NCBI GenBank assembly: GCA_043228905.1
Contig: JBHGNT010000002.1
Span: 18,972,001-19,036,000 of the forward strand
Source of the DNA: Azolla caroliniana
Lineage: Eukaryota > Plantae > Polypodiophyta
Reading direction: 5' to 3'
Length of the DNA stretch: 64,000 bases
In this document: one piece after another, positions 25,176 to 45,802 of the stretch
Layout: the number at the start of each line of letters is the position of its first letter
Numbering within the stretch: the first letter of the stretch is position 1
The notes under the pieces: generated by a model
The model's database searches: none
What the model saw: only the letters and a program-made list of their open reading frames with translations
What the model was told of the DNA's origin: nothing
Program-made: the position numbers and the translations under genes

Positions 25176-27335
25176 ATGGCTGCTGAGAATGGAAGCCAAA
25201 TAGTCATAGAAAAGTTGGATAAAAACAATTTCAAGGCGTGGAAATTCAGAATGACAAATTTCGTTATGGGGAAAGGATATTGGGATTATATTGAAGGAGA
25301 CCTAGAAGAGGCTCTAGAGATCCCTGAAGAAAATGCAATTGCTGCACAGATTAAAGCATTTAAGGAATGAAATCAAGGGGCAAGAAAGGTATGGCATTGG
25401 CTCTTACTTAGCATCTTAGATTCGATGCTTGGACACATACAAGATGCTATGCTTCCAAAAGAAGCTTGGGATAGTTTAGTAAAACTGTTTGCAGTGAACA
25501 CAAAGGCTAGAAAGCTTCAGTTGAAGACTGAGCTAAATACCTTGGAAAAAGGTTAGATGTCAGTGAATGAGTATGCTCTGAAAATAAAGAGCATATGTGA
25601 ATCACTTGCTTCTATCAATGTGAAGGTAGAAGATGATGATAAGGTGGAAATATGCTTAAGAGGCTTAGGACCTCAATATAAAAGCTTCAAAACATCTATT
25701 CTCACAAGGAATAACATTCCAAGTTTTCTAGATTTGGTTTCAATGCTTGTAGTGGAAGAAAGAAATCAGATGGATGATGTAAACAAAGGAAACTCTGAGA
25801 CTGAGGGACATCCCCTCTACAATAGTGCTGGAAGAGGCCATGGAAGATTTGGTTCAGCTAGAACCAACAACAATAGTTATTAAGGAAGAGGACATGTTAC
25901 AAGTGGAAGAAACAACATCAGAAGCATGGGGAGCAATCGAGACAGAGGTAAGCAAACTTATTTGAATGATGATGGCTGTTGGTATTGTGGAAAACCAAGC
26001 CATACACAGGCTGAATCCTATAAAAAGCAAAATGATGAAAAAAGAGGGAAGAGACAACGAAATAATTATGCCTCAACTTGTGAAGACTGTGATAAAGATG
26101 GTGCATTTGTGGTGCAACATGAAACGACATCAATGGTTGAATGTTCACAAAGATGCAATGAAGAGTTTATGTGGTATGTAGATTCTGGGGCATCTAATCA
26201 TATGTAAGGACATGCAAACTGGTTTGAAAGTCTAAGAGAACTAGAGATTCTTGGTTATGTACAAACATGTGATAATACTACTCACCAAATAGAGCATATG
26301 TTGGAGATATTCCATTGTGGGAAGAAAAAGGAAAAACTAAGTATATGCTGAATGTGATGCATGTTCCAAACCTTGCAAAAAATTTGATTTCTGTTGGACA
26401 AATAGTAGAGCAAGGAATGCAAGTTAAGTTCAAGCAAAGTGGATGCTTTATAGAGAAACGGGGAAAACTTATTGCAAAAGGAAAACGTCAAGGAAGAATG
26501 TTTGTGTTAGATGTGGATATGCCTAAAAAGATTACAACCATGTTTGCAGAAGGAATGAGTGTAATCTCAGATGTGGAGATGTGGCATAAAAGAATCGGTC
26601 ACATACGTATGCAAACCTTGAAAAATATGTTGAGGAAAAATGCAGTGGTTGGACTGCCTAAGCTAAAAGACTGTGAGATGAGCAAAATATGTGAAGCATG
26701 TCAATATGGAAAACAAAACAGGTTGCCTTTCCCTCATGAAAGACATGTAAACAAATCTTTTTTTGGATTTGGTACATATAGATGTATGGGGACCAACAAA
26801 AAATGCATCAATTAGTGGATGTAAATTTTATGTAACTTTCATTGATGATTGCTCAAGGAAAACATGGGTTTACTTCACGAAAGAAAAAAGTGAAGTATTT
26901 GATTGTTTCTGTAAGTTTAAATGCATGGTAGAAAAGCAGGTTGGAACTAGAATAAAATGCCTAAGATCTGATGGAGGAGGAGAATACTTCTCAAATGAGT
27001 TTTCTGATTTTCTATGTAATCAAGGAATAAGGAGATAGTTTACATGTAGATATACTCCACAACAAAATGGAGTTGCTGAGAGAAAAAATAGAACTCTAGT
27101 GAAGATAGCAAGAGCCATAATGACAGAAAAAAATATGCCATTGTATTACTGGATAGAAGATGTAAACACAACAAACTATATCCTAAATAAATGTATAACA
27201 TCTGGAGTACATGAAGTAACTCCTGAAGAATGTTTCGATGGCAAGAAGCCTAGTTTAGAACACTTAAAAGTGTTTCGATGCCTTGCTTATGTTCATGTAC
27301 TTGCTAAAGTAAGAAGTAAGCTTGATCCAAAAGCT
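25176..27335 (+). pseudogene. pol: E gag, protease, integrase
   Basis: CWYCGKPSH, WYVDSGASNHM, YVTFIDD, LRSDGGGEY. Confidence 0.88.
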
Positions 27336-27820
27336 TGTTAGCCGGCCGGCAAAAACTGTGTTATCGCTAGGGCCGGACAATGGCCTAACACAGGGTGTCC
27401 CCTTGAGACACTTCACCAAAGGGGTGTTGCGGTGAGATAAAGTTAGATCCACTATTAATGGAACCCTAATTGGTTACTAAGCGGCAAGATCATTAGTCAC
27501 AATACACGTGTAGGATAAATTACACTTAGCACAGAACGATAATTAATAATGATTAAGATACAAAACAACAACACTATTAATTATCCGCTTCTGATTACAA
27601 TCTAACTGGGCCCTTTTATAAGTCTCCGGCTTTAGGTACAAACTGGTGCCAACCGGCAACCGACTACGAACCGGTCCAGATCCGGATTGGCATACCGATT
27701 CCGGGTCCGTCTGTTCGCTTCTCAAAATCATAATAATTCTATATTATAACTAATCAGCTCCTGGTTATTAATTATCCCCCTTTTCCCATTCTGGACTTCC
27801 CTTGCCGGCCGACTAACACA

Positions 27821-27837
27821 TGGCACGCCCGTGGGAC
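27821..27837 (+). promoter_or_regulatory. tRNA-Arg PBS-like motif at G's PPT position
   Basis: TGGCACGCCCGTGGGAC, 2 nt after the LTR end CTAACA; resembles the plant tRNA-Arg(UCU) PBS TGGCACGCCC(A/G)GTGGGAC. Confidence 0.65.
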
Positions 27838-30523
27838 AGTACCTTGTACGTCGAATCCCACGATCCGGCCTTCATTCATCCTCCAAAATGTCCAAAATGC
27901 TTTGATCTAAGGGTTCCAATGGTTCCTCGGGAAGCTGTTTTGTCATCTGCTGCTGCTATTGTTCCTCCTCCTGTTGTTCCTGCGGCTGTGGCTGCTCTTC
28001 TTGCCGCTCTGGCTTTAGTTGTGGTTGCTGCTGGTTGACGTTCGTTGCCTGCGGCTCCGTTGGTCTGACCGGCTCTGTCTCCATTTCCGGCTCGACTGGT
28101 CTTACCAGCTCTTCCTCCTTTTCCGGCTCTACCGGTCTTGGCGTCTCCTGGTTCTGTTGTGTGGCATGCACCGGTTCCTGCAGATGACCTTCCTTTAGTG
28201 GCTCCTCCTGAGTACTATCTGGTTGGCTTCCCCCGGCTTTAACCGGCGTTTGTTCTGAAGATGGCTCCTTGTCACTGATGCTAATCGCCGTAGTTTTCTT
28301 GGCCACTTCTTGCCGTCACCGTTCCCATTCATACTTTTCAAAACGGAGTTGGTTGTCCAACTGGTCATCATCCAGCTGTGCCACCAACTGGCGTACCGCC
28401 ACCCTCTGCTCATCAACCAAGGATATGAAATCATCCGACAATTCATCTTTTATTGCTTCAATGTTTTCTTTATCCAGGATGTTTTCTTTCCACCGGTTTT
28501 CCGCATTTGGCCGCAACAACTGTAGCTCTGCTGCCTGCTTAGCCCACTTCGACCACCATTGTATTGAGCTTTCTTCCACCAATTGCTTTGTTCGATTCCT
28601 CCATGCTAGTACGATGTCCCGGATCCGCCCCAGCCCCATCTTTGACTTGTTTTCCGCGGCCTGTTTTTCGTCCTTCAATTGTTTGATTAGGCTTGCGGTT
28701 GCCACTTCTTGGCTTCTGTAGTGCATGAGTTGGGTCTGATATGTCGTCTGAACTCTGTTCAGAGTCATTGTAGCGCGCTCTATTTCCGCATGGTGCTGCA
28801 CTTGCAGGTCCAATCGCTCTTTCGCTGTTGCCACTAGTTGTTTCGCTACTTCGGCTCCCTTCGACTGCTCTTCCATAAATGCCGCCGTCAACCGGTTAAT
28901 TTCCTCCCGGAGTTCCATGCACTTTTCCTACTGCCGGTCACTTTCAGTAGTCAATTTCTTATGATCGGCATCCAAATGCTTATAATCCCGGTGCAGTCGG
29001 TTGAAGTCGTCGGTTTTCTGTTTGAGCTTTTGATTGATAAGCCGATGAGCGCGGTCCTCACGGTCTTTTTGTTGCCGGAACTCTTCTTTGAGGTGCTCAA
29101 TCTCCACTTCTGCCGTCCTCCGAAGTTTCTCTTTTTCTTGCAGGAGTTTGTCTTTCTCTTCTTTCAGCCAATCATATGCTTGATGATCTCTTCTCAAGCT
29201 TTCCTCTTTTCGGTAGAGGCTGTCGACCGTTCTCCTTTGTTCCTCCTCCGCCGCTTTTTTCAATTCTCATTCCCTGGCTCGTAAGGTTTCTTGTGCTGCT
29301 AGGTCTTCCCTTAATGTTGTGAGCTTCTGTGCTGATGATTTATGAGTATCCGGGCCTGCTGCCGTCACTGGGGTTTGATTGTTCTGGAGAGTTACCGAGG
29401 TCACTGGTTCCGATTGCTGTGGTCCTTCTATGACCAACTTGGCCATTTCTGTTTTGGCCTTCTCTATGTCTTCTTCCATGCTCCGGATTCTTGACCGGGC
29501 CTTCTCTAATTCCTCGGTTGTGGCTAGCAACCGGGCTTCCTGCGCTTTCTCTTCCGCTTCTAACTGGCAGATGACCCCAGTCACTTGTTCTGCTACCCAT
29601 CGGAGCCATTGACTGCCGGTGCCATGTTGTTGTGCCGGTTCTGGTCGTGGGATGGCATTTTCACTGGTCACGAGCCTACTATTGACGGTTACGTCAAACG
29701 GCCGCTCCGGTTCTGGCTGTTGCTGCAGCTGCGGCAATGCTGGCAATTCAATGACTGGTTCTTGATCCACCGGTACTGCCGTGTCCTGGACTGCGGGTTC
29801 TGCGATGTCCTGCTGCAACACTTGCTCCGTCCCTGATTCTTGTTGAGCCAGTTCTGTCGCCTTCCTAGGCTGCGGCTCCTTAGGGAGGGCTTCCAGTATA
29901 ATATCCTCCATTGGCCTTGATGTCCCCCCTTCGTGGCCCTTTTCACTTGTCTGGTGACGACATAACAACGTCTCCGTCGGCTCGTCTTCCTGCTGTTCTT
30001 CCACCAGTGTCTTGCTATTGATTAACGCTGCCAAGGGGTCCTGCCCCTACGTTTTCTCCGGTTGCTGTTCTGCTTGTTGTTTCGACAGGCACAACTTGAT
30101 TTTCAATGGTCTCCCCGAGGTGTCCACCACCGCCTCCTTCTCTGCCAGCCGCTTTCGATTAGGCCGTTCCTTCGCTTGGGTAGCTAGGAGTTGCTGCCGT
30201 TTTGAAGCTTTTTTGGGGGTCTTTTCTGTCGGTCTTCCCCTCTTTCTTTGTTTCATGGGCTCCACTGGCAGTGCTAACAAAGTGAGCCATTGCGCCACTG
30301 CTGTCCACATCTTTTTGCCACCTTTTATTGAGATGATGGCAACGCTCAAGCCGTTGGCGATCATTACCGGCAAATCCACCTGTACTCCCTCATAGGTAGC
30401 TATGATCAAACCGGCTCTATTCCTGGGCATCACCGGTGGTCGGGGGTATACATGACCATACTCGTGGATTACCCGAGCAATTTCCCGAAACAATAGGTCT
30501 TCACCGCCTTGCATGCGGTACAT

Positions 30524-31995
30524 TGTCGCGAAGTTTCGCGCATGTTTGTTACTCGGGCGGGACCACGAGGGTCTTGGACTAGGGAGTACTCAAGGGATTG
30601 AGAAGACCCGAGGTTTGCTTTACGACAATACTACTTCCCGACCCCTTCCCGAGCAAGGTCTCGTTGCCCTTTGTTTTGTGAGGCCGGTGGCTCTCGTTGA
30701 TCACGACTCGTCGACCTTCCAAGATCACCGCACGAGCCAAGTGACCAAATGGGTACAAGCAAGATGAGCACGCAACATGAACGCACAAGGGGACGATAAC
30801 AAAAACACGAATGTCCGTACGTCTTTATGAGGAGGAGAGGTGCATGGGCACGCCCAAACGCTCCCTCGTCACAAGATGTCGAACGTACGAGGAAGACACA
30901 AAACACATGCACAAATGCTCGTACGCCTTTATGAGGAGGAGAGGTGCATGGGCAAGCTCGAACGGTCCCCTCGTCACAAGATGGCCGAACGTACACGGAA
31001 GACACAAACACACGCACAAATGCTTGTACGCCTTTATGAGGAGGAGAGGTGCATGGGCAAGCCCGAACGGTCCCCTCGTCACAAGACGGCCGAACCTACA
31101 CGGAAGACACGAATAAAGAAAGAAGGAGAGAAAGAAACACAAATGATATCGACCAAAGAGATAAATACGTGTTCGGTTCCAACGCAAGAGGAACCTTTAT
31201 AAAATAGGGTTTTGTTTACAATGGCAACTTATAGTTAACCACAAGCTCAATGAAAACATAAATATTAAATGCCCTTAGAGAAAAAAGCAAATCCGAACAC
31301 GGCGAAGATGAACACAGGAGCACCACCAAAATGCCAATCCCAACGAACCACGACCTCCTGAACGGCGAGCACACGGGCTCGCAACGAAGAACAGGGCAGA
31401 GCAACGTCGAACCAAAGAAGCTTGGGCTCACGATCACTTCGAGTGCCGACGCGAAGAAGACGAGCACGTGGCGATGGGGGGGGATGAAGGGGTATGAGAT
31501 GAAGAGAAGTGGTGAATAAGAAGATGAGGAGCTTCGAAGGAAAATTGGCAATAGTCTCCTCCTCCCAAAACGTCCTCCCGAATGAGCCCCCCCCGACCTC
31601 CTTTTATAGGAAAAAAAAGAAGGGGGGGTCGCCAAATTTGTCTTCAGTGAAAAAGGAATAAAATTCCTTAAATCGCGCTGCATTGTAAGTCCAAATTCAA
31701 ACCATGCACCTCTAGGTAATAGTCAATGTGACTATCCACTAGCCCACTAACTCTCTCTTATATAATATATAAATCTATCTCTATAAATTCATAGCATGTC
31801 TCCCCTCTACCTTTTATCTCTCCTCTCTCTTACTTTTTGCACGAGCTTCTATACCTCCTTTTCACCTTTTCTTTTCCTTTTTAATTTGCATATGCACAAT
31901 TAATCGCTTTTGTGTGCACACACATTGCACATGCACATTTTTTAACCCCCCCTTTCGCCGGTTTTTCCCACTCTCAAGCACGCCACATCACGACA
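30524..31995 (-). repeat. Solo LTR H (about 1.47 kb) of another Gypsy family
   Basis: TGTCGCGA..TCACGACA termini, minus-strand TATA near 31600, no coding capacity, no clear TSD. Confidence 0.7.
30810..31112. repeat. Tandem repeat, about 105 bp x 3, inside H
   Basis: GTACG(C/T)CTTTATGAGGAGGAGAGGTGCATGGGC recurs at about 30817, 30921 and 31026. Confidence 0.85.
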
Positions 31996-32724
31996 ATGCC
32001 TTGCTGCGTATTCACCGAAATACCTCGTCAGCAGCTCCTGTGAAGGGTTGTCGATCGAGTATATTCCCCCTTTCAGTAAGCTAGTCAGGGCTCGGATGGC
32101 TTCCTCGGTGATGACCTCCGTGTCGATGTCCTTGACGACATTTTCCGCATCTTCGTGTGGTGGTGCTTCGACTATCCTCAAGAATCTTTCTAGACCATGT
32201 TGCTTTAGCCATTTCTTAGTCGCTTCTGAGAGTACCATGCATTCCATGTCATCGTCGTCGTCGGTAGGTTGTGGTAAGCTTGGTGCGCCTGTGTGTTCTG
32301 CGTGCTCTCGCCTGATCACTTGTAATCGCTTGTGTGCGCTGGGATCTCTGTGTTCGCGAAATGAAAGGGACTTTGCATGGCGAAGGTTTTCTTTCTCCAT
32401 GCGTGGCTCCTTTTCTTGATTCCCGTGCATGCACGTCCTGTACTAATATAGCAAACGGTTGACACATGGTGCGCCTTTTTTAAAGGGCTTTAATTAGGCA
32501 CCCACCACACCTTTTCAAAGTGCCCGTTCGCTCCTCGTCTTTGAATGATGACTTTTTTTTTTTTTCTAGATTGAGTTTTAGTTAACCGGAAGCACCGGGT
32601 CCGTATCCCGGTTTTTCCCCATATTGACGTTTGTTGGCCACCTATTTGTCATTATCCGATATGCCGGCTTCGTCTGACTATCGGGTACTTTTTTCCTGGT
32701 TCCTACTGTTGTATCAGCCTCCGT

Positions 32725-35137
32725 CTACTCGAACGGATTCTGTGGCATAGGTCCACAATATGGTTTGAGTCGAAACCCATTGATCCATTTGCCCATTATC
32801 TGACCGATGAGCGTTCCGAGTTGGTATGAACCGTTGAATTCCCGCGTTATCCAATACGGTCCGATCCACCGGAACCGTAGCTTTCCCGGCATCTGACCCA
32901 TCCGGGTCTGGAACACCAGTACCGGCTTGCCGATCCCGAACATCTTCTCATTGCCCTTCCGGTGCCGATTGACAAACGCCTTCCTTCGTCGCTGCTCCAG
33001 TTCCAACTGCATGAGACTTGCTATCCGATGCTCCTCGAGTTTGCATAATGCGGCTAACCGGATTTTTTCTGATTCCTTTTCACTTAGTCGTTCTCTAACC
33101 TGTATCTGCAAACTCGGAACTTGAAATTCGATCGGGATTACTGCTTCAAGCCCAAATGCTAACCGGAATGGTGTTGACCGGATACTCGTTTTGTATGCTG
33201 TCCAGTATGCCCATAGTGCACTATGCAGCTTGGTGTCCCAATCGGTCCGGTTTTCATTGACGGTCTTTCGCAGGGTGTTTTAGAGCGTTTTGTTTGTGGA
33301 TTCGGCTAGTCCATTGGCCTGTGGATAATAAGGGGTACTGCACTTGTGTACCATTGCATAGAATGTTGTTAACCTCTCCACTACTTGATCGAGAAAATGT
33401 CCGCCTTGGTCGCTAATTAACTCGATCGGGCATCCATACCGGCACCAGATGTACTCATATAAGAACTTTGTCGTTGATGCCACAATGTTGTCCCGCAAAG
33501 CCTTGGCTTCTACCCACTTGGTGCAATAATCAGTGGCGACTATAACATATCTGTTGCCGGTTCTCATTGCGGGAGGTTTAAATGGCCCAATGAAATCCAG
33601 TCCCCATTTCTGAAATGGTTCTAAGGGTAGCATCGGCTAGTGAGGCATCCTTGTCTGTTCTGTTGGTTGGCCCATCCGTTGACATAAATCACAAACTTTC
33701 GCATACCGAACCGAGTCCTTCAGTGTTGTCGGCCACGATAGCCCGCTGTGCCATATCTTTCTTGCCGTAGCATCCCCGGCATAGTGCCCTTTGGCAATGC
33801 CACAGTGCGCTTCTCGTAATATTGTGTCCTTTTCGTCGCTTTGCACTGCTCGCCGCCATATGTCATCCGCGCCTTTGTGGTACAGGGTGTCCTGTAGTAG
33901 ACAAAAATGTCGGCTTTGTACCGCTTACCGCTTCCGCTCATCTCGGTTCATCTCCTCCGGTGGAAGTCCCGTGCTTAGGAATTGATGCATGTTGGTTAGC
34001 GACTTGTCTTCATCGACTACCGTGCTATCGACTGCCGTTTTGGTTGTTACTTTAAACAACTCAGCATCCGGAAACTCATCCGGGACTCCGTCGCTGGTCT
34101 CATCGGAGTCTAACCGGCTCAGATAATCGGCAACCGCATGTTGTATTCCCAGCCAGTGATATATTTCGAACTCAAACTCTTGTAGCAACAATGTCCATCG
34201 GGTCAGCTTGCCGGTGAGTGATGCCTTTGAGACCAAATATAACAGCGTTGAGTGGTCGACATGGAATGAAATTTTCCTTCCCAATAAATAGTGCCTGAAC
34301 TTGGTAACATTGTAAATCATCCCTAAGACTTCTCTTTCCGTTGTTGAATAATTTCTTTCCGCCTGGGGTAGCTTCTGGCTAGCATAATAGACTGGTCGGT
34401 ACCATTTCGGTTCAGTCAGTTGCATTAGTGTGCTGCCGATTGCTATGTGGGACGCATCAACGAACACGTGGAATTCTTTTGACCAGTCCGGTGGTTGCAC
34501 CATTGGTGCTTGTGATAGCAGTACTTTTAGTGCCTAGTAAGCCTCATCCTCCGTATTTGTCCATTGAAACAGTGTTTGGTGAACCGCGACATGCAACGGT
34601 GTAGCAAGATCGGCCAAATACCGAAGCATCCGGCAATGCCACCGGATTTGCCCTAGAAACCGACTCAAAGCTTTAGCCATGGATGGTGCTGGTGCTTCTA
34701 AGATTTCTTTGATCTTATTGGGGTCTACTGCGATCCCGTTCTTGCTGACAAGATGGCCCAACAATGCACCGCTTGTTACTCCGAACACACACTTTGCTGG
34801 ATTCACGCTTAACCGATAACTCCTGCATTTCTCAAGACATAGCCAGAGGTGTTGGAGATGCTCTCCTTCTCGACTATACATGACGAAGTCATCCAGGAAT
34901 ACCTACACGAATGCCGGAATGAACTCGCCAAATATTTCCATGATTATTCGTTGGAAGGTCGCCGACACGGTCTTGAGCCCGAACATCATTACCACTACGA
35001 CGAAAACTCCCCATTCGGTGATGAACGCCGTCTTGTCTTGGTCGTCGGGGTGCATCCTTATTTGATTTGTAGCTGCTAAAACCGTCTAGAAAGCTATACA
35101 CTTCATGACTGGCTACCGCGTCCAGGACTCCATCCGT
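32725..35137 (-). pseudogene. pol: G pol: RT (3' part), RNase H, integrase
   Basis: FVDASHIAIG, NYSTTERE, WGLDFIGPF, ISDQGGHF, WIGPY. Confidence 0.88.
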
Positions 35138-35777
35138 TGTCGTGAAGAAAACCGTCCACAAGCGGAATCGGTGTACCGGAGCGTAGAAACCGACTCTTCA
35201 TGCACGTGCGCCTTAAGTTGTACATAGGAGATCCTAGGTAGATTCGGTAGGTAGGGAGTAAAGGGGAAACGGCTCCTTCCTTGCCTATAAAAGGAGGGAG
35301 ACGAGGAGGGTAGAGGGATCGCGGAGAGCCGAGGACGAAGTGCTGTCGGTTTGCGTGCGAAGGCTTCTCTCTCTCTTTCTGGTTGCAAACGCCATAGCTT
35401 CCTTTTGTGCAGGTTTCGGGAGGCCCGCGCTGCTCTGAGGAATGCCCGAGTGCTTCCGGCAGCACCTCCAACCTGTTCCCGTCTTTCTGTGCGTTTACGA
35501 ACAGGTATCGGCATCTGTCCGCCGGCCTGTTCGGTTGTAACCGACTTCGTGTTTTGTTGTCCTCGTGTTCTTGTTGTTTGTCTTGTCAATACATACATAC
35601 TTTCGTGGTTTTCTGTGTCGCTGTCCCATTCGCGTCTTTGCGTCGAAGGGCCGTGTCCCTGTGAATCTACGCTCGCACGTAGTGGGTCTCTCTCTCTCTC
35701 TCTCTCTTACTCTTTGGTACACGACCCCCGAGGTCCCGCCTCACTCCACGCATCCGCGAGGAATACCTTGACATATT

Positions 35778-35794
35778 TGGTGAACCCGACGTGA
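35778..35794 (+). promoter_or_regulatory. PBS complementary to tRNA-Trp
   Basis: TGGTGAACCCGACGTGA, 4 nt after the LTR, matching the tRNA-Trp 3' end. Confidence 0.8.
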
Positions 35795-37944
35795 AAGAGG
35801 CGGCAGAAGAGCAGAAGATGAGGGGGTCGGATCTTGCAGAGGCCATGGCTTCGGCCGTGGATCGGATATTGAGCACACGCGAGGGCACCGGCGCCCTCGA
35901 CAGAGCCATTGAGGCGGTCGTCGGTACGATCGGCCGTTTCAGCGGAAAGGATGCTACGAAGTATTTGGCGTCCTACGGGGCGGAAATGCTGATGCGGGAC
36001 ATTCCGGAAGAGAGGCGTCTTGCCGGGTTCCCTCGAGTGGCGATGCTGAGCATCCATGCGGAGGTGCTCGAGGTACGGGCGGAGAGCCGTACCTGGGAGG
36101 AGTTCGAAGGTCGACTCCTAGAGAAATACGGGCTGGACGACGCGCTCCGGCTTTCGAAACAGGACTTCATGGAATGGGTGGAGTCCCCCGGCAAAGGAAG
36201 AAACGCGTTGGCACTCCTCCGGGAGTTCGAAGAACGCTTTGCGCGCCTTTCGGCGCTTAACCGAACTATCCTGGATACGAGCCGGGTCCTACTGTTCGTC
36301 AAGTCGGTGGACGAGCGGGACCGGGATCAAGTCGGCTCCTTGCTGGAAACTGAAGACGGGTTGACGACCGACTGGGCTGCGGTTAAGAGAGTCTGTGGCC
36401 GTTTCGACAAACGGCGAGAATGGGCTGACAATGGGGCGGCCGGTGCGGGCTCTGTTACAGCAAGGAGGCTTGAACCGGCGCCGCAAGTGCGAAGGGAAGA
36501 AACCCGGGAATGGCTCGAAACCGGTTCGGCTTCAACCAGCATGGCCAATGGCTCGTCCGGAGGAGCAGCGCTAGAGGAGTTGACGCGGGCGATAAAGGAT
36601 CTCCAGATCGCCCAGACTCGAAGGGAAGGCGGCGAACCGGCTCGTGACCGACAGCCGGCAGCGGGGAACAGGTGCATGTGGTGCGACGAGGTCGGCCACA
36701 TTCGGAAGGACTGCGGCGACTTCGCAGAGGCGTTGAGAAACCGGGTGGTGTACCTGTGGGAAGGCCGGGTGCACGCTGGCGACACCAGGAGGGCCCTGAG
36801 CCGAAACGACGGGCGAGGAGGTATGAAGAGACCGATGGAAGAGGCAGCGGCCCGACACGTGGAGGCCATCCACTACTCGGCGTCGGCCGGTATTCGGGTC
36901 GGGGGCAGCGAGGCCCGAAAGGAGAGTAAAGACGGTTCCTGGTCGGCAATGCTGGAAGGCCTCGCCGGCGCACAACTGAGGAAAGATGAAACGGACCGCG
37001 TTGAGAGACGGGTCCGGGAAATAACCGGGTGGAGCGATCCGGTCGAGGAGAAGACGGGCTTCGTAGAAGCCGCTTGCCGGAACTACGAGGCTCTGGTAGA
37101 AGATAAGCGAGTAGGGAAAGCCGGAGCGGCCGGGCCCTCACAACGGTACGAGACCCGATTCGGGCAACGACGGAACGATGCCGGCGGGTCCAGCCCGCAA
37201 GATAACCCCAGGAAGGGCGGGTACCGACTGGGGACAGAAATAGAAAGGACTACGGACCTACGGAAGGTCCTAGAGGAACGGATCCTCGACAGCAAAGTGG
37301 AGCTGTCATTGCGAGAGGTGCTAGGGATCGCCAAGAAGGAATTCCACGACTCCATTGTGGACCTGGTGAAACGGAAGAGGCTATCAACGGAGACGGATCC
37401 GGAAAGACCGGTAGAGGTGCGGACGACGCACATCGACGACTTGGCGCTGGCAGATGAGTGGGCGGAGAGCCACTATTCGAGGCCACACTGGGCCCGAGCG
37501 ACCACGGAGACCCCGGTAAAAATCGGAGGTGTTCAGGAACCGGTGGTAGCGTTGGTGGACCACGGTTCGGAAATAAACCTAATGTCCATGGACTTCTATA
37601 AGAAGGGGAAGTGGCCGATCAACACCAAGCACGGGTGGAAGATACGGGCGGCGACGCGCGCCACCGAGGAACTGCACGGGGCCTGCCCGAATGTGCGAGT
37701 GAAGATCGGCGACGTCGAGATTGACCAGCACTTCTTCGTACAGGAGACGTCCTCGCATCCGGTCATTTTAGGCGAACCATACATCACGGCGGCGAGAATG
37801 GAGACCAAGGTGCTGGACAACGGTTCGGCCTACTGGAGGGTCAAAAGCTAGGACGGGCGCCATTCGGTGCAATTTTTGACGGTGCGGCCGAACCACGAGA
37901 GAAACCACGAATCTCTCGGTGGCGAGAGCCGGGAGGATTTTTAG
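35791..37944 (+). CDS. gag: F ORF1: gag plus aspartic protease (premature TAG at 37849, probably from CAG)
   Basis: 686-aa ORF with CMWCDEVGHIRKDC and LVDHGSEINLM. The frame continues to EDF-stop at 37944, as in C. Confidence 0.85.
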
Positions 37945-40900
37945 AGAGGGCTGCCAAGGCGTGGGGCCGAGACAGCCCGGACACTCGGAAAAGACCCCAT
38001 GACTGTACGATAGGTAGGGGATTTTGCTTCTCCGACAACGGAGGGTGTATGCTGGTCGGCATCATTGGCCGAGAAAAGACAAGGGCGGAAGAGCGACTTC
38101 GAGCGTGCGGAGTTCTTGGCCCGGACGAGGAAATCAGCGGAGCCGTGGAGGCGGTCTCCTTCGACGACACCTTAGGGATGCTGAGGAAGGTTGCCGGAGA
38201 AGACCTTAACGAAGACCGGACGATACCGGTATGTTCCGAAAAGATGTACGAAGTCATCGCGAACTTCAGTCGGGGGCTCGGGTCGGATCGGACGGCCCGA
38301 GTTAGCACAAAGTACAAGACTGTGGACCGGAAGGTAAGGCCAGTCGCGGCACCCTTACCGGAGGGCAGCGAGTCTCGGATTAGAGGGGTTGCGTCGGACC
38401 CCAGTTTACGAGATCCGGCCTGCATAGGACACACCTTCACCGACAGGACGCTCTGGGAGCTCAAAATCGGTGGGGGCGGGTTCCTACTGCCGGCGGAGGA
38501 AGAACGGATTCGGAGGATGCTCGGAAGGCACGGGAAAGCCTTCGCATTCTCACCGGGAGAGATCGGGTGCGTAGACCCGACGATCGTGGAGCCGATGGTG
38601 ATATTCACGGTACCGCATGTACCGTGGAATCTCAAGCCGATCCCGGTACCGAGAGCTCACATCCCGAAGTTGATGGAGCTACTGAGGCAGAAAGTAGATA
38701 TGGGCATTCTCGAACCGTTGAGTGCCCCATACTCGAACCGATGGTTTACCGTACCAAAGAAAAACGGAACATTGCGCTTCATTCAGGACCTGCAGCCGGT
38801 CAACAGAGTGACCATCCGGAACGCAGGAATCGGACCGACCATAGACGAGTTCGCGGAGGCCTTCGCCGGAAGGTCGATTTACTCGGTCGGTGATCTATAC
38901 TCGGGGTACAACCAGTTCCAGCTAGCCGTGGAGAGCAGAGACATTACGACAATGCGAACTCCCCTCGGCCTAGTGCGAATGTGTACCCTGCCACAAGGAG
39001 GGACTAACTCGGTGGCTCACATGGTAAATGCAATGAACAAGGTACTGAGGGATTGCATCCCCGACATCACCATGCCATTTCTGGACGACATCCCGATAAA
39101 GGGGTGCCCGGTGGAGGAGAAGGACGAGATAGTCGGGCCGGACGGATGCCGGCGATTCATAGAGAAACACATTGACGACTGCGAGAAGGTGCTACAAAGG
39201 CTAGAGGATGCTAGGCTCACCTTCTTCGGGGAGAAATCGGCCTTCGGGCAATCAGAAATCCTGGTGGTCGGACACCTATGTGGACCTTATGGTCGGAAGC
39301 CGTCTCCGGCAAAGGTAGAAGCCATCTCCACGATGAAGACCGACTGTAGCTCGGTTACGGAAGTTCGGAGGTTCCTGGGGGCATGCGCATTCTACCACAT
39401 ATGGATCCCGCATTACTCCCACGTTGCAGAGCCGCTATACGGGTTGCTGAAGAAAGGGCGAAAATTCGAGTGGCGAGACGAGCACACGGGGTCGGTCCGG
39501 AAGCTGAAGGAAGCTCTTATGGCAGCACCGGCGCTCTGGAAGGCTGTCTCGGTACCCCGGTATACATAACGGTGGATACGAGTCTGACCGGGATTGGATG
39601 GGTCGTCAACCAAGAAGACGAGGACGGCATTCGGTTCCCGATCCGATTCGGCGCGAAGGTCCTCAGTGAGCGACAGCGAGGGTACGCCCAGGTTAAACGT
39701 GAACTCTGGGGTATCGTTTCGGTAGTAAAGGCCGACAAAGACTACCTGATCGGGACAGAAGTGATTATCGAGACGGATTGCCTGCCGATTCTTGGCATGG
39801 TCTCCGGATGCGCGACACCGGACCTGGCGATGCTCAGGTGGATAGCGTACATAAAGTCCCTGGACCCAGAGATACGACACATTTCCGGAAAGGACAACGC
39901 CATAGTCGACATGCTTTCGAGGGCGAGGTTTGATGACGAGGGCGGCATGGTTTCGGAGGACGAAGAAGTCGGCGTGGACTTCTTCAAGGCGGCATACGTG
40001 ACGACCGATGGGACGAGCACTCCGGCACTTAACGACTTCTACGAGAGCAAGTACGACGGCGAGTGGCTCCAAATCGGTGGATTCTTGAGGATAATGACGC
40101 CGGATGTGTCATGGACGAAGGGCGAGGCCAACCGGATCCGGAAGAAAGCTTACCGATTCTTTCTCTCGGACGGATACTTATGGAAGCACCCGAAGAAGAG
40201 GTACGGCGCTCCGCTCCGGGTGGTGGCGATGAAGGAAGAACAGGAGGAGCTGCTGACGGCCTACCACGACAGCCCTTGGGCCGAACACCGTGGAACCTGG
40301 GCCATGTTCGAGAAGATAAAGGGGAAGTACTGGTGGCCGGGACTGTACCGGGACGTGCATCGGTTCGTGACAACTTGCGAGAGCTGTCAGATGCACTCCA
40401 TAGTCCGACACCGGGACGAACTTCACCCTATGTACCCTCCGACCATCCACTTCAAATGGATGGTAGACCTGGTAACGATGCCGATAGGAGTAGGACAGAT
40501 GCGGTATCTGGTCCTGGCTCGGGAAGATCTAACGAACCAGGTAGAAGGTCGGGCCCTTCAGAACAAAACGACTGCGGCCGAATGTCGGTTCCTGCTCGAG
40601 GACGTAATATGCCGGTACGGGTGCGTCGGGAAGATCGTGGCTGATCGCGAGGAGTTGGACGCCGAAGAGGCCGAGGAGCTGTTCGACCGGCTAGGAGTCA
40701 AGCTCTCGCTTACCACTGCGTACAATCCGGAGGCGAATGGGAAGGTGGAGCGCGGACACGGACCGATCGTCAAGGCATTAGTTTGGGCATGCGGAGGTCG
40801 GGTCGGGAACTGGCCGCGGCTACTGCCTTACGCGTTGTGGGCTGACCGGACTACGCACAGTTCGGTAACCGGATTCATGCCGGCAGAGCTCATGTTTGGG

Positions 40901-41401
40901 CAGAAGCCGATCATGCCGATCGAACGTACGGTCTCCTCATGGGCAACCGTGGACTGGAGAGACGAGATGAGCCGGGAGGAACTGCTGACGACGCGCATAC
41001 GACAGCTCGAGCGGAGACCGGAGGACGTGGAAAAGGCTGCAGAAAAGCTTCGGGTGGCCAGGACGAGGAACAAAGCCCGGTTCGACCAGACGCACCGGCT
41101 CCGACCGAAGAAGATCGAGGAAGGCGACTGGGTGCTAGTCTACGACAGCAGCCTCGACAACCAGCACCGAGCGACACAAAAGTTCACAAGAAGGTGGTTC
41201 GGGCCTTACGTGGTACAAAGCGCCAACGACAACGGGACGTACCATCTGGCGGAACTCGACGGTACGAGAATAACGATACCGGTAGCTGGGAAGCGGATCA
41301 AGACGTTCAAGAAGCGTCACAACGACGAGCCGGATCAGGATGACTTGGACCACGACGACGAGCGATCCGAAACCGAGGAAGAGCCGACGGGCGGGGAATG
41401 A
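37935..41401 (+). pseudogene. pol: F ORF2: RT, RNase H, integrase (one frameshift near 39550)
   Basis: ORFs 38049..39569 (LPQG, FLDD) and 39383..41401 (TVDTS, EHRG, GPY). Confidence 0.88.
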
Positions 41402-42118
41402 TGGCTGGACTGGTTTTCTCCGTCCAAACACAATTTGGCGCATGCCGGTGGATGCGCGGTTAGGTGGGGGCGGATGTCGTGAAGAAAACCGTCCACAAGC
41501 GGAATCGGTGTACCGGAGCGTAGAAACCGACTCTTCATGCACGTGCGCCTTAAGTTGTACATAGGAGATCCTAGGTAGATTCGGTAGGTAGGGAGTAAAG
41601 GGGAAACGACTCCTTCCTTGCCTATAAAAGGAGGGAGACGAGGAGGGTAGAGGGATCGCGGAGAGCCGAGGACGAAGTGCTGTCGGTTTGCGTGCGAAGG
41701 CTTCTCTCTCTCTCTTTCTGGTTGCAAACGCCATAGCTTCCTTCTGTGCAGGTTTCGGGAGGCCCGCGCTGCTCTGAGGAATGCCCGAGTGCTTCCGGCA
41801 GCACCTCCAACCTGTTCCCGTCTTTCTGTGCGTTTACGAACAGGTATCGGCATCTGTCCGCCGGCCTGTTCGGTTGTAACCTACTTCGTGTTTTGTTGTC
41901 CTCGTGTTCTTGTTGTTTGTCTTGTCAATACATACATACTTTCGTGGTTTTCTGTGTCGCTGTCCCATTCGCGTCTTTGCGTCGAAGGGCCGTGTCCCTG
42001 TGAATCTACGCTCGCACGTAGTGGGTCTCTCTCTCTCTCTCTCTCTCTCTCTTACTCTTCGGTACAGGACCCCCGAGGTCCCGCCTCACTCCACGCATCC
42101 GCGAGGAATACCTTGACA

Positions 42119-45100
42119 CCGTAAATGGAAGTTGAAAGGCGTCGGTCACTGTTGCCGCATTGAGTTTCCGGTAGTCGACGCACACCCGGATCTTACCGTT
42201 CTTTTTCGGCACGTTGACTATGAGGCTTAACCATGTAGCTTTTTTCATTGGTCGGATAAAACCAACTCGTAGCAACTTGTCAATTTCCTCTTTGACCTTG
42301 GCCGCATAGTTGGGGTTCATTCAGTAACATCATTGTGCTACCGGTTTGGTATCCTTACTGAGATGTATCTAGTGTTGGTTCAATTGAGGATCCAACCCCC
42401 ACATGTCTTCATATGACCAGGCGAATACGTCCCGGAAATCCTTTAATAAAGTGATCATCGCCGTCTTGTTGTCCGGTGACATTTCCTTAGCAATATGAAT
42501 TGGTCTTGTGTCGTCCCCGGTTCCTAAGTTCACTACCTCTAACTGGGATGCTTTCACGCATTGGGATACCGCCATCTCCCTCTCTAGAGCTTCCTGTGCT
42601 TGCCGTAATTCTTGGATAGCTTCCTGATCCGGTTCCTCGATGGCATCGTTCGATTGCGTTATATATGGTGACATCGCTTCTGCCACATCGATTTCAAATA
42701 GGGGTACAATTTTTGGGTTTTCTTCTAAGTATTGGTCGACCTCTTCGTCCGCAAGCCCCTCGAGCATGTTTACACCTTCCGCATATAGCGGTGTCAGGCC
42801 CTTGCCGGTACTTGCTCGAGGGTGGGTAGGTACCCTTACTTTAGTCTTCCCTCGCCGAAAGGTAATCATGTTTTTCCACCAATTTTGTTTGATATGCGCC
42901 GTTTTTAGACATGAGCGGCCCAACAACAGTGGGTAAGCCCCTTGCGCATTGAGCTGCAGGACCACCGCCAAAATTCGGAATGCGTGGCCTCCGATAGTTA
43001 CGTCTAAATCCCGTATCAAGCCGGTAGGTCTTACCGAGCTTGTATCCGCCATTCGGAGCCAAAACGGGCAAGGCTCCCATTCCTGGATTCCCAGGGTATT
43101 ACAAGTCCGTAGACTCATCACGTTCACGCCCGATCCTCCGTCCACAATCGTCCCTGGTAGTTCTGGTCCTTTGACGATGGCGGTGATTGCCGGACTATTC
43201 ATGTCCACCACTGTTGGCCCTTCTTCCGGATTTGAGAAGAACGCAGGAGCCGACAATGGATTTGATGTGGTCATTCTCGATTTCAGTCCTTCCGTAAACT
43301 GGGGAAGTAGCTATAGTAACTGACCTAATGGCAGTGTAATTTGACATTCTTGTAACGCTTGCCATGTTGGGTCTTCTTGCTGAATCGTGTTGGTGGCGTC
43401 TTCCGGTTTTTCCTTTTGTTGTTCAAGCTCAGCCACATTTTGCTCATTTGCCTTCTTCACCCACTCGGTGGCTTGCTTTCGGATTGCCTCATGTGTTTCC
43501 CACTTCGTTGTTTTGCCTTTTGTCCTGATGGTGACTTGTTGTATGTCGGTGACTTTTGCTACCACCATATTTACGGCTGGTCTTTTCTCGTAGCTTTTAA
43601 CCGGACATTGATTATTGTAATGTCCTTCTTGTCGGCAATAGTAGTAGTACGCTTTCTGGGTGTTGCTGGATTCAGTGTTCACTCCGGTAACCGGTTGAGG
43701 TCCTATTGGTGGTCAGTTGGGTACTTGGCCTTGGTCCGGTTGGGTACTTGGCATGCCTTGTCCGGCTGCCACTAGCGGTCCTCCTGTCTAGTGTTCCATT
43801 TTTTATTGAAGTGTTTTTTGTTTCGGTAACCCTGTCGGGGCCGATTTTCATAATTATCTTGGTCCTCCCTCCGTTGGTTGTAAACGGGAGAGTGATCCCG
43901 GTTGTATCGCTCATATCGTTCACCGTTGTAATCCTGGTAGCTATCCTGTTGGTCTCGGTCGTGAGCATCCTTTCTGTCACTGTTTCGGATATCTTGCGCC
44001 GGCTAGTATTGCTCGTCTCGCCACCAATGTTCTTCTTCCTCCTCTCGGTTGCTTCGGGGTTTGATTTGCCTTACCGGTGCCGCTTGCCGGTTCAGCAAGT
44101 TATATTCGCATCGGTCCATTGTGTGCATCCTAGAATGACATAACATACACTGTGTCTGCATGGTACATTCTATTGCCGAGTGCCCGACATTGAGACAAGT
44201 TGTACATTGTATAGCTTGCCGAAAACATAGGTCGTCTTCTATCGGTAATGTACCCTGGAGTGTCCCCATTGTTAGCCACAAGCTTGTTTTCTCCATCTCC
44301 CTGACCCTTTCTATGACTTGGTCGATCATGCTGGTGCGGAAATCAATCACTGCGCACACCGTACGCAGGGGTTCCTAGAGTGCTGCTAGGAATATTGTTT
44401 TAGCCTCTGCCTTTGGTTGTACCTGATTGAGCTGATTGTGCATTCGTTGGAACCAGATTACAAATTGCTGAATGGTTTCTGTAGGTTCTTGCTGTATGGT
44501 GTAGAATAGGTTGACCATCTCTCGTTGATCCACCTCCTTGTTGAAGAACTGTAAAAATCTGGTTTTTAAGTCCTCAAACGCCGTGATGGTGCCAGGAGTG
44601 TGTGTCAAGCGCCATCGCGCAGCTGGTCCTTCCAAGGTCATGCCGAACTTTGCAATCTTCGAGCGTTCTGCTTCGGCGGCGGTCAAGTGTTGCAACACAT
44701 GGTTCGCTTCCCATGTTTGTAGAAATGCATAGATATGAGCTTCTGCATCCGGATCATCCTAGTTCTTGGGATATTGGAACGACATGTCCTTGTCGAGTGT
44801 CAGAGGTCTTTCCTCCTCTTCTTTCGGTGGCTCATGTGGCAATGTCGGAAGTTGATCCGCCACTTGTCGGTCTGGGGCTTCCACTTTCGTTAACTCTGGT
44901 TTTGGTGTCGGCGAGGTATTCGACTGCTCGTCCTCCGGTCCGTTTGGGGTATCGTGGCTGCTATGGTAATTCGAATGGGCGCTGCATTCCTCGTCCGAAT
45001 CCGATTCAAAGGCCAAGAACGGTTCCGAATCGCCTCCCCCTGTCGCTAGTGCTTGCAAAATGGATTCTGCGTCCCGGAGACTGCTCAAGCTGTGTCCTTC

Positions 45101-45280
45101 GTCCAGTTGGGAATTCTGCTGCCCGCAGAGTGACTCCGTGGCCACTCGCCGGATTACTTTGGAAAATGACCGATCCGCACGGATCTCTTCTGCCGCTTGT
45201 TGGAAAGCCTCTCGCTTTCGCAATTGTTCGGTAAGTCTTCTCGCTCGCTCCGTAACCGGGTCGTTTGTTGGTCTAGTCAT
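42119..45280 (-). pseudogene. gag: G gag (several zinc knuckles), protease and RT start
   Basis: ORFs 44759..45280, 44375..44698, 44003..44359, 43311..43682, 42369..43274 (IVDGGSG) and 42006..42320 (VPKKNGKIRVCVDYR). Confidence 0.85.
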
Positions 45281-45318
45281 CCATGCCCGCCACTGTTCGC
45301 TGCGTTTGTGTAGGAATC

Positions 45319-45328
45319 GTGGTCGCCA
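45319..45328 (-). promoter_or_regulatory. PBS of G (tRNA-Arg-like TGGCGACCAC)
   Basis: Lies between the 5' LTR and the gag start, exactly where LTR homology ends. Confidence 0.7.
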
Positions 45329-45802
45329 AAAACTATGTTATCGCTAGGGCCGGAAAATGGCCTAACACAGGGTGTCCCCTTGAGACACTTCATCAAAGGG
45401 GTGTTGCGGTGAGATAAAGTTAGACCGACTATTAATGGAACCCTAATTGGTTACTAAGCGGCAAGATCATTAGTCACAATACACGCGTAGGATAAATTAC
45501 ACTTAGCACAAAACGGTAATTAACAATTATTAAGATACAGAACAACAACACTCTATGAATTATCCGCTTCTGATTACAATCTAACCAGGCCCTTTTATAG
45601 GTCTCCGGCTTTAGGTACAAACCGGTGCCAACCGGCAACCGGCTACGAACCGGTCCGGATCCGGATCGGCATACCGATTCCGGGTCCATCCGTTCGCTTC
45701 TCAAAATCATAATAATTCTATATTATAACTAATCAGCTCTCGGTTATTAATTATCCCCCTTTTCCCATTCTGGACTTCCCTTGCCGACCGGCTAACAAAG
45801 CT

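Follow-up and report, generated by a model that had tools for sequence, protein, structure and literature searches.

To our knowledge, priming of the second DNA strand from a polypurine tract (PPT) is treated as near-universal in LTR retrotransposons and retroviruses. In the canonical replication scheme, as given for Ty3 in PMC5371799, a tRNA is bound at the primer-binding site (PBS), and an RNase H-resistant PPT lies before the 3' LTR. Variants of first-strand priming are known, and they include a whole tRNA, a half tRNA, and self-priming (PMC6317226). The window analysed here is a stretch of 64,000 nucleotides from Azolla caroliniana (contig JBHGNT010000002.1). It contains element G, a Ty3/Gypsy LTR retrotransposon at 27336-45797, in which the place of the PPT is taken by a copy of a tRNA 3' end.

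Element G was inserted inside a Copia integrase gene and is flanked by the target-site duplication (TSD) AAGCT (Table 1). The gag, RT, RNase H, and integrase regions follow in that order between direct LTRs, whose cores are identical in 436 of 462 columns. The original prediction had placed the genes on the minus strand and the normal PBS upstream of gag, and both were borne out. The extra ORF, which reaches about 1000-1170 aa in relatives of G, terminates about 10 nt ahead of the tRNA copy. An insertion of 1.4 kb at ~30547-31995 splits this ORF; bounded by TG...CA and containing a TATA-like box as well as 104-nt tandem repeats, it looks like a solo LTR. The nested Gypsy element has a 4-bp TSD (CCGT) of the NCGN type, and a related pol was found in locus L042; a preference for NCGN-type TSDs is ascribed to Phygy in PMC6317226. 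Two segments of the LTR of G (27362-27433 and 27674-27721) showed a Logan contig depth far above the rest of the LTR, so they appear to be common to related families.

Table 1. Features of element G and its flanks (positions in the window)
Feature	Position	Strand	Basis or remark
TSD, left copy (AAGCT)	27331..27335	+	sequence
3' LTR tail	27336..27358	-	unprocessed 7-nt U5 spacer and 16-nt inverted copy of the LTR's own first bases
3' LTR core (TG...CA)	27359..27818	-	TATA-like box on gene-sense strand
Spacer between CCA end and TG of 3' LTR	27819..27820	-	2 nt
Copy of tRNA-Arg(UCU) positions 59-76 minus one C	27821..27837	-	CCA end on gene-sense strand
Inserted hairpin, between tRNA positions 58 and 59	27838..27850		4 bp, 3-nt loop, one-base bulge
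Copy of tRNA positions 49-58 (T-arm 5' strand and T-loop)	27851..27861	-	one extra base in G's family
Extra sense ORF	27872..32442	-	interrupted by stops and solo-LTR-like insertion
RT (3' part), RNase H, integrase	32728..35137	-	without extra RNase H; interrupted by stops
Nested unrelated Gypsy element (control)	35138..42118	+	ordinary PBS and G-rich PPT
RT, 5' part	from about 42120	-	on far side of nested element
gag (Retrotrans_gag, Ty3_capsid)	44006..45279	-	interrupted by stops
Normal PBS	45319..45328	-	7 nt past 5' LTR end
5' LTR core	45336..45797	-	
TSD, right copy (AAGCT)	45798..45802	+	sequence

The original prediction stated that G carries a PBS-like site instead of a PPT beside its 3' LTR, and it called for a match to a tRNA 3' end over at least 10 nt. 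The + strand at 27819-27837 reads as predicted and adjoins the LTR end at 27818. No purine tract is present there: the 15 nt preceding the 3' LTR contain 8 purines with a longest run of 3, whereas the same 15 nt contain 11, 12, and 11 purines in the three other LTR elements of the window, with a G5 run in each. The 10-nt core of the site occurs a single time in the window, with both strands counted. The match to tRNA-Arg(UCU) covers 17 of its last 18 nt, with 10 more beyond the hairpin; the C that is absent corresponds to tRNA position 65/66. On the + strand, which is equivalent to the minus-strand cDNA, the copy at 27821..27837 is an inverted PBS. Three features were absent from the original prediction, namely the hairpin (27839-27849 in the strict sense), the match to tRNA positions 49-58, and the 23-nt tail of the 3' LTR. 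Read in the gene-sense direction toward the LTR, the motif consists of tRNA positions 49-58, the 13-nt hairpin insert, tRNA positions 59-76 minus the C, the 2-nt spacer, and TG. Its opposite strand would read as a split PBS.

The reference tRNA-Arg(UCU) is an ARAGORN call in the metagenome locus L003, and it comes from a retro-copied piece and not from a host gene set. It was one of three tRNA calls over 79 metagenome loci. ARAGORN found no tRNA gene within the window, and Rfam gave nothing meaningful at the motif site. In L003 (1190-1265), a whole CCA-bearing tRNA-Arg(UCU) is joined, on one low-coverage contig, to the 3' part of the extra ORF. It appears to be a copied mature tRNA and not a host gene, because it is a reverse copy inside a deleted member of the family. 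This suggests that the RT read through the entire primer tRNA, and these RTs have likely copied tRNA-Arg(UCU), given a whole CCA-bearing copy inside a family member. Two tRNA-Lys calls were also obtained in the flank of a high-coverage non-coding element (L031, 1062-1137 and 2756-2828).

The normal PBS of G pairs poorly with tRNA-Arg(UCU). A 10-nt PBS starting with TGG is conserved in six loci of G's group, and a matching tRNA was not found in those loci; we take the tRNA to be Arg-UCG. The sister groups of G use the Arg(UCU) site as their 5' PBS, and that site matches the tRNA in L003. Both autonomous groups likewise have a 5' PBS of 10-13 nt, and beyond it a hairpin and a CGAAC box. Two 5' PBS types also occur among non-coding relatives with near-identical LTR starts and the same 3' motif (L013 and L054 versus L027, L017, and L070), which looks like PBS switching. 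A strong G/C hairpin of about 13-15 bp lies near the U5 end in the LTRs of the non-coding L007, L013, L017, L027, L038, and L070.

The original prediction further suggested that G may be replicable from either orientation. This was not supported: the extra ORF lies on the motif's sense strand in 48 of the 49 loci with an extra-ORF match, sense TATA-like boxes are found in 12 of 13 reference LTRs, and the two tRNA-related sites of G differ in build, with a spacer of 2 nt at the 3' site versus 2-7 nt at the 5' site. The idea that the non-coding relatives run in the opposite orientation was also rejected. Their TATA-like boxes are sense, and their long antisense ORFs look like low-complexity shadows.

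A normal PPT in other copies of the family would have spoken against the predicted arrangement; other copies and many related families were found to carry the motif, with no PPT. The pattern scan of metagenomes gave 119 matches (loci L002-L118). Among 115 rows that have 30 nt of context, the window included, NN-TGT comes directly after the motif in 112; the pattern itself fixed TG only. The remaining three rows are one contig that ends at the LTR start (L011) and two chance matches (L057 and L073); the latter two have neither hairpin nor LTR and were rejected as motif carriers. The viral-contig match L001 was likewise discarded as a chance phage match, and the protein scan there gave no relative. 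The spacers among the 112 rows, with their 2-nt length set by the search pattern, are GG (59), TG (40), TA (9), AG (3), and CG (1). The LTR starts beside the motif fall into 45 clusters by a crude ungapped cut, which probably over-splits. The longest purine run in the 60 nt upstream is at most 8 in 111 of 112 rows, and the exception is an AG microsatellite; the plant-type loci among them all come from one assembly series and were chosen by motif, so that PPT-bearing sisters could not appear.

The complete order of gag, pol, ORF, and motif is found on one contig in L052 and L068, where the catalytic RNase H residues are intact, and the order motif-LTR-PBS-gag is found in six loci. Small elements without gag/pol matches, such as L007 and L038, also retain the motif, and for this reason it may be regarded as a cis signal. 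Genome contigs contributed five short pieces of RT at 41-49% identity, none with LTR ends. Logan contigs matching 27290-27990 pile up over the motif in all four runs, far above the LTR body, as summed depth and not as copy number. Over 27800-27872 there were 796, 1070, 402, and 3 contigs in the runs of organism labels A, B, C, and D, respectively; the window itself may derive from run X1. Over this interval, just five substitutions reach at least 1% and no indel does, and no PPT-bearing sister was seen among the Logan matches listed on 27290-27990 and 27800-27872. In run X13 of organism D (window 27814-27855), positions 27830 and 27831 are changed together in 3 of 3 contigs, which may reflect either CpG decay or co-change with the tRNA of that host.

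The inserted hairpin varies among motifs in a paired manner. Of 67 distinct motifs, 41 keep Watson-Crick pairing throughout the four-pair stem. The second and third pairs alternate between G-C and A-T. In 24 rows, which were picked by the analyst and whose relatedness inflates the score, 86% of the cells pair and 18 are changed on both sides, while 0 of 500 shuffles and none of the slid registers scored as high. The hairpin appears to be under selection, with compensatory changes. The argument for it is one of covariation and not of energy, because 27800-27880 folds no better than shuffles (z -1.26, not significant); the predicted energy of the cDNA hairpin is -4.8 to -8.5 kcal/mol. The tRNA positions 54-56, which are unpaired in the hairpin fold, remain tRNA-like. 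At position 55, 67 of 68 motifs have T or C, and C56 is changed to T in 9 of 68, some of them in high-coverage contigs, which breaks tRNA pairing. The inner hairpin begins at a distance of 18 nt (17 nt and one bulged base) from the CCA end, which is also how far position 58 lies from the end of the tRNA. The loss of the C and the gain of a base leave this hairpin-to-CCA distance unchanged.

The original prediction proposed that a second tRNA might prime the plus strand on the minus-strand cDNA. With the motif conserved and no PPT beside it, this is the best-supported reading; the priming step itself is what we infer, and a tRNA-like RNA acting in cis competes with it. For this Ty3/Gypsy lineage, the chance that the PPT has been replaced by a conserved inverted tRNA-Arg(UCU) site from which a second host tRNA primes the plus strand is put at about even. 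A bolder statement is judged somewhat more favourably: a whole lineage of plant Ty3/Gypsy elements probably primes both strands with host tRNAs, needs no PPT, and uses a split, hairpin-containing antisense tRNA-Arg site. In such a scheme, a first tRNA would prime the minus strand at the short 5' PBS in the usual way. Once the RT has copied past the 3' site and the RNA has been degraded by RNase H, positions 76-59 of tRNA-Arg(UCU) would pair with the cDNA, with one bulged C. The hairpin would loop out at tRNA positions 58/59, and positions 57-51 may pair beyond it, giving a split PBS like that of Ty1. The m1A58 of the tRNA could not pair, and it stops RT on a real tRNA. The CCA end would then be extended by the RT through the 2-nt spacer into U3, and the tRNA would be removed by RNase H and the end trimmed to TG by integrase, as after PPT priming.

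Several lines of evidence favour this priming by a second tRNA. The predicted tRNA duplex (-36.7 kcal/mol for 18 nt and -48.4 kcal/mol for 28 nt, with RNA parameters and no modifications) far outweighs the cDNA hairpin. The T or C at position 55 keeps tRNA pairing but spoils a T-loop mimic, and the sense PBS regions are built alike, with a short PBS, a hairpin, and a CGAAC box; both argue for a tRNA as the primer. The plus strand would start at the motif, since the start must fall two bases before U3, where the CCA end sits. The position of the motif, its gene-sense orientation, its conservation, the whole tRNA copy in L003, and the intact RNase H residues also count in favour. On the other side, C56-to-T breaks pairing, and wobble pairs in the inner stem are more frequent on the sense strand. 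A single inherited event may account for T55C, and the fixed missing C is unexplained by second-tRNA priming. In HIV-1, priming on DNA by RNAs other than the PPT is suppressed by RNase H and NC (PMC2665208). A tRNA annealed to DNA would therefore be expected to prime poorly, unless the RT of G's lineage differs.

The primer could instead be supplied in cis by the RNA of G, through its own tRNA-like 3' segment: the RT would pause at the hairpin, RNase H would cleave behind the CCA, much as it removes a tRNA primer, and the fragment still annealed would prime the plus strand. A second tRNA would then be unnecessary. The start of the hairpin exactly 18 nt from the CCA end, with the length kept by the missing C and the added base, fits such a primer, as do the G-U pairs of the inner stem (11 on the sense strand versus 5 on the antisense strand) and G>A at 27839, which reaches 7% in two runs versus about 3% at CpG sites. 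However, RNase H should cleave an RNA that is rich in GC and not made of purines (PMC2665208), and the outer stem would be met first by the RT. Moreover, T50C and G52A in the outer arm give mispairs on the sense strand but wobble pairs on the antisense strand, and T55C in a large clade ruins T-loop mimicry. Wobble counts on the motif rows and Logan contigs gave mixed signals and pointed to no single strand for the hairpin. A primer in cis is rated as unlikely, though a serious competitor. The RNase H problem would be sidestepped if a short antisense transcript of the 3' LTR were co-packaged, tRNA-Arg(UCU) primed on that RNA as an RNA-RNA duplex, and the product annealed to the minus-strand cDNA as the plus-strand primer. 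On the antisense strand, the site is organized as a working PBS would be, with 10 nt, a hairpin, and a CGAAC-like box, like the sense PBS regions. A second packaged RNA would be required, however, and an antisense TATA-like box is found in 4 of 13 reference LTRs versus a sense box in 12 of 13, so this route seems improbable.

The structure might also have another role, such as packaging, pairing between the 5' and 3' ends of the RNA, or RNA stability, with the plus strand started by another route that gives the same end. In families that use an Arg(UCU)-type 5' PBS, pairing of the sense motif with it would be possible. But G's group and L013/L054 have the other 5' PBS type with the 3' motif unchanged, so that 5'-3' pairing is not kept; in addition, the CCA end lies at a fixed short distance from the LTR start with no PPT near. 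Such a role is no more probable than the antisense transcript. An accident of copying or an inversion confined to this copy of G might be suspected from its aberrant 3' LTR tail, but it has almost no probability left. Such an accident is refuted by the 111 metagenome rows and the hundreds of contigs, from three organism labels, that carry the motif, and by the compensatory changes in the hairpin.

The tail itself was considered separately. The integrated end of G lies in the tail, and thus both integrated ends are U3-type. The tail is absent from 13 of 13 other junctions of a 3' LTR with its flank, all of them from other families (51 downstream sequences were sampled, 33 reach a reference LTR end, and 13 of those enter flanking DNA). 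It likely arose when synthesis switched template to a displaced plus-strand start. In Ty3, plus strands are initiated anew several times (PMC5371799). The tail does not choose between the priming mechanisms.

The relationships of G were examined through its polyprotein relatives. No match to an extra RNase H (RVT_3/RNase_H) was found in P0001, P0004, P0008, or the polyprotein of L068, and the match was present in the control P0099. Tat elements (TatI-III, Ogre, Retand) have an additional RNase H of the archaeal type, unlike the G lineage. Chromoviruses have a chromodomain after the integrase, whereas no chromodomain match was obtained in the G lineage. Athila and the basal Tat Z1 lack the extra RNase H and have an extra 3' sense ORF, and the G lineage shares both features. 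The extra ORF gave no Pfam match above the cut-off, and its N-terminus has a lead-level likeness to ATHILA ORF-1/Transposase_32/PMD. In a quick tree of 81 rows, without curated references and with its deep forks open, the motif-bearing RT-RH rows fall in a starred clade of 10 rows, mostly unnamed metagenome proteins; the Adiantum row of this tree was poorly extracted and sits on a very long branch for that reason. Among the named relatives, the protein search gave proteins of Adiantum, Riccia, Marchantia, and Malus (36-60%), so that a non-seed plant host is probable. G may be filed on the OTA side (Athila or basal Tat), without firm clade membership.

The anatomy, a tRNA copy in the place of the PPT, is real, conserved, and lineage-wide, and it is apparently undescribed. 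As the original prediction had supposed, no LTR element with a tRNA site in place of the PPT was found in the literature covered, a search that lay outside subscription journals and Repbase entries. The smaller supplement text of REXdb (PMC6317226) gave no match, and its large tables, outside the search, may bear on novelty. A high-copy lineage that has dropped the PPT means that the RT can set the 5' end of the LTR in another way. Either leading mechanism, a tRNA on DNA or the element's own tRNA-like RNA piece, would be new if true. The finding bears on how RT and RNase H select primers, and also on annotation tools that demand a PPT for calling an element intact.

In summary, G can be compared with four known systems. 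It shares with canonical LTR elements the TG...CA LTRs, the 5-bp TSD, a putative tRNA PBS after the 5' LTR, a presumed plus-strand start just before U3, and an active-type RNase H; they have a PPT where G has a tRNA 3'-end copy and a hairpin. The non-autonomous Helenus/Ajax elements, with small-RNA-derived sequence, also contain tRNA-derived sequence inside an LTR element, but their tRNA-like part belongs to the LTR itself, and they retain a PBS as well as a PPT (PMC10886601). In contrast to Helenus (TRIMp3), G is coding, has its motif outside the LTR, and has no PPT. The plant non-chromovirus OTA elements (Athila, and the Tat group without extra RNase H, 'Z1') have the same RT-RH-IN order, no chromodomain, a tRNA-Arg-type PBS, a long 3' sense extra ORF, and a 5-bp TSD (PMC6317226, PMC13468544). 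The G lineage differs in being without a PPT and in apparently forming its own clade among unnamed metagenome proteins, and PPT-less members are unmentioned in the available text of these two sources. The bipartite PBS of Ty1/Ty3 is likewise a two-segment tRNA site made of acceptor stem and T arm, and that of Ty1 is split by a small internal loop (PMC5371799). The Ty1/Ty3 site, as described there, is complementary to the tRNA on the genomic RNA and serves minus-strand priming, whereas the site of G is identical to the tRNA on the RNA and lies at the plus-strand start.
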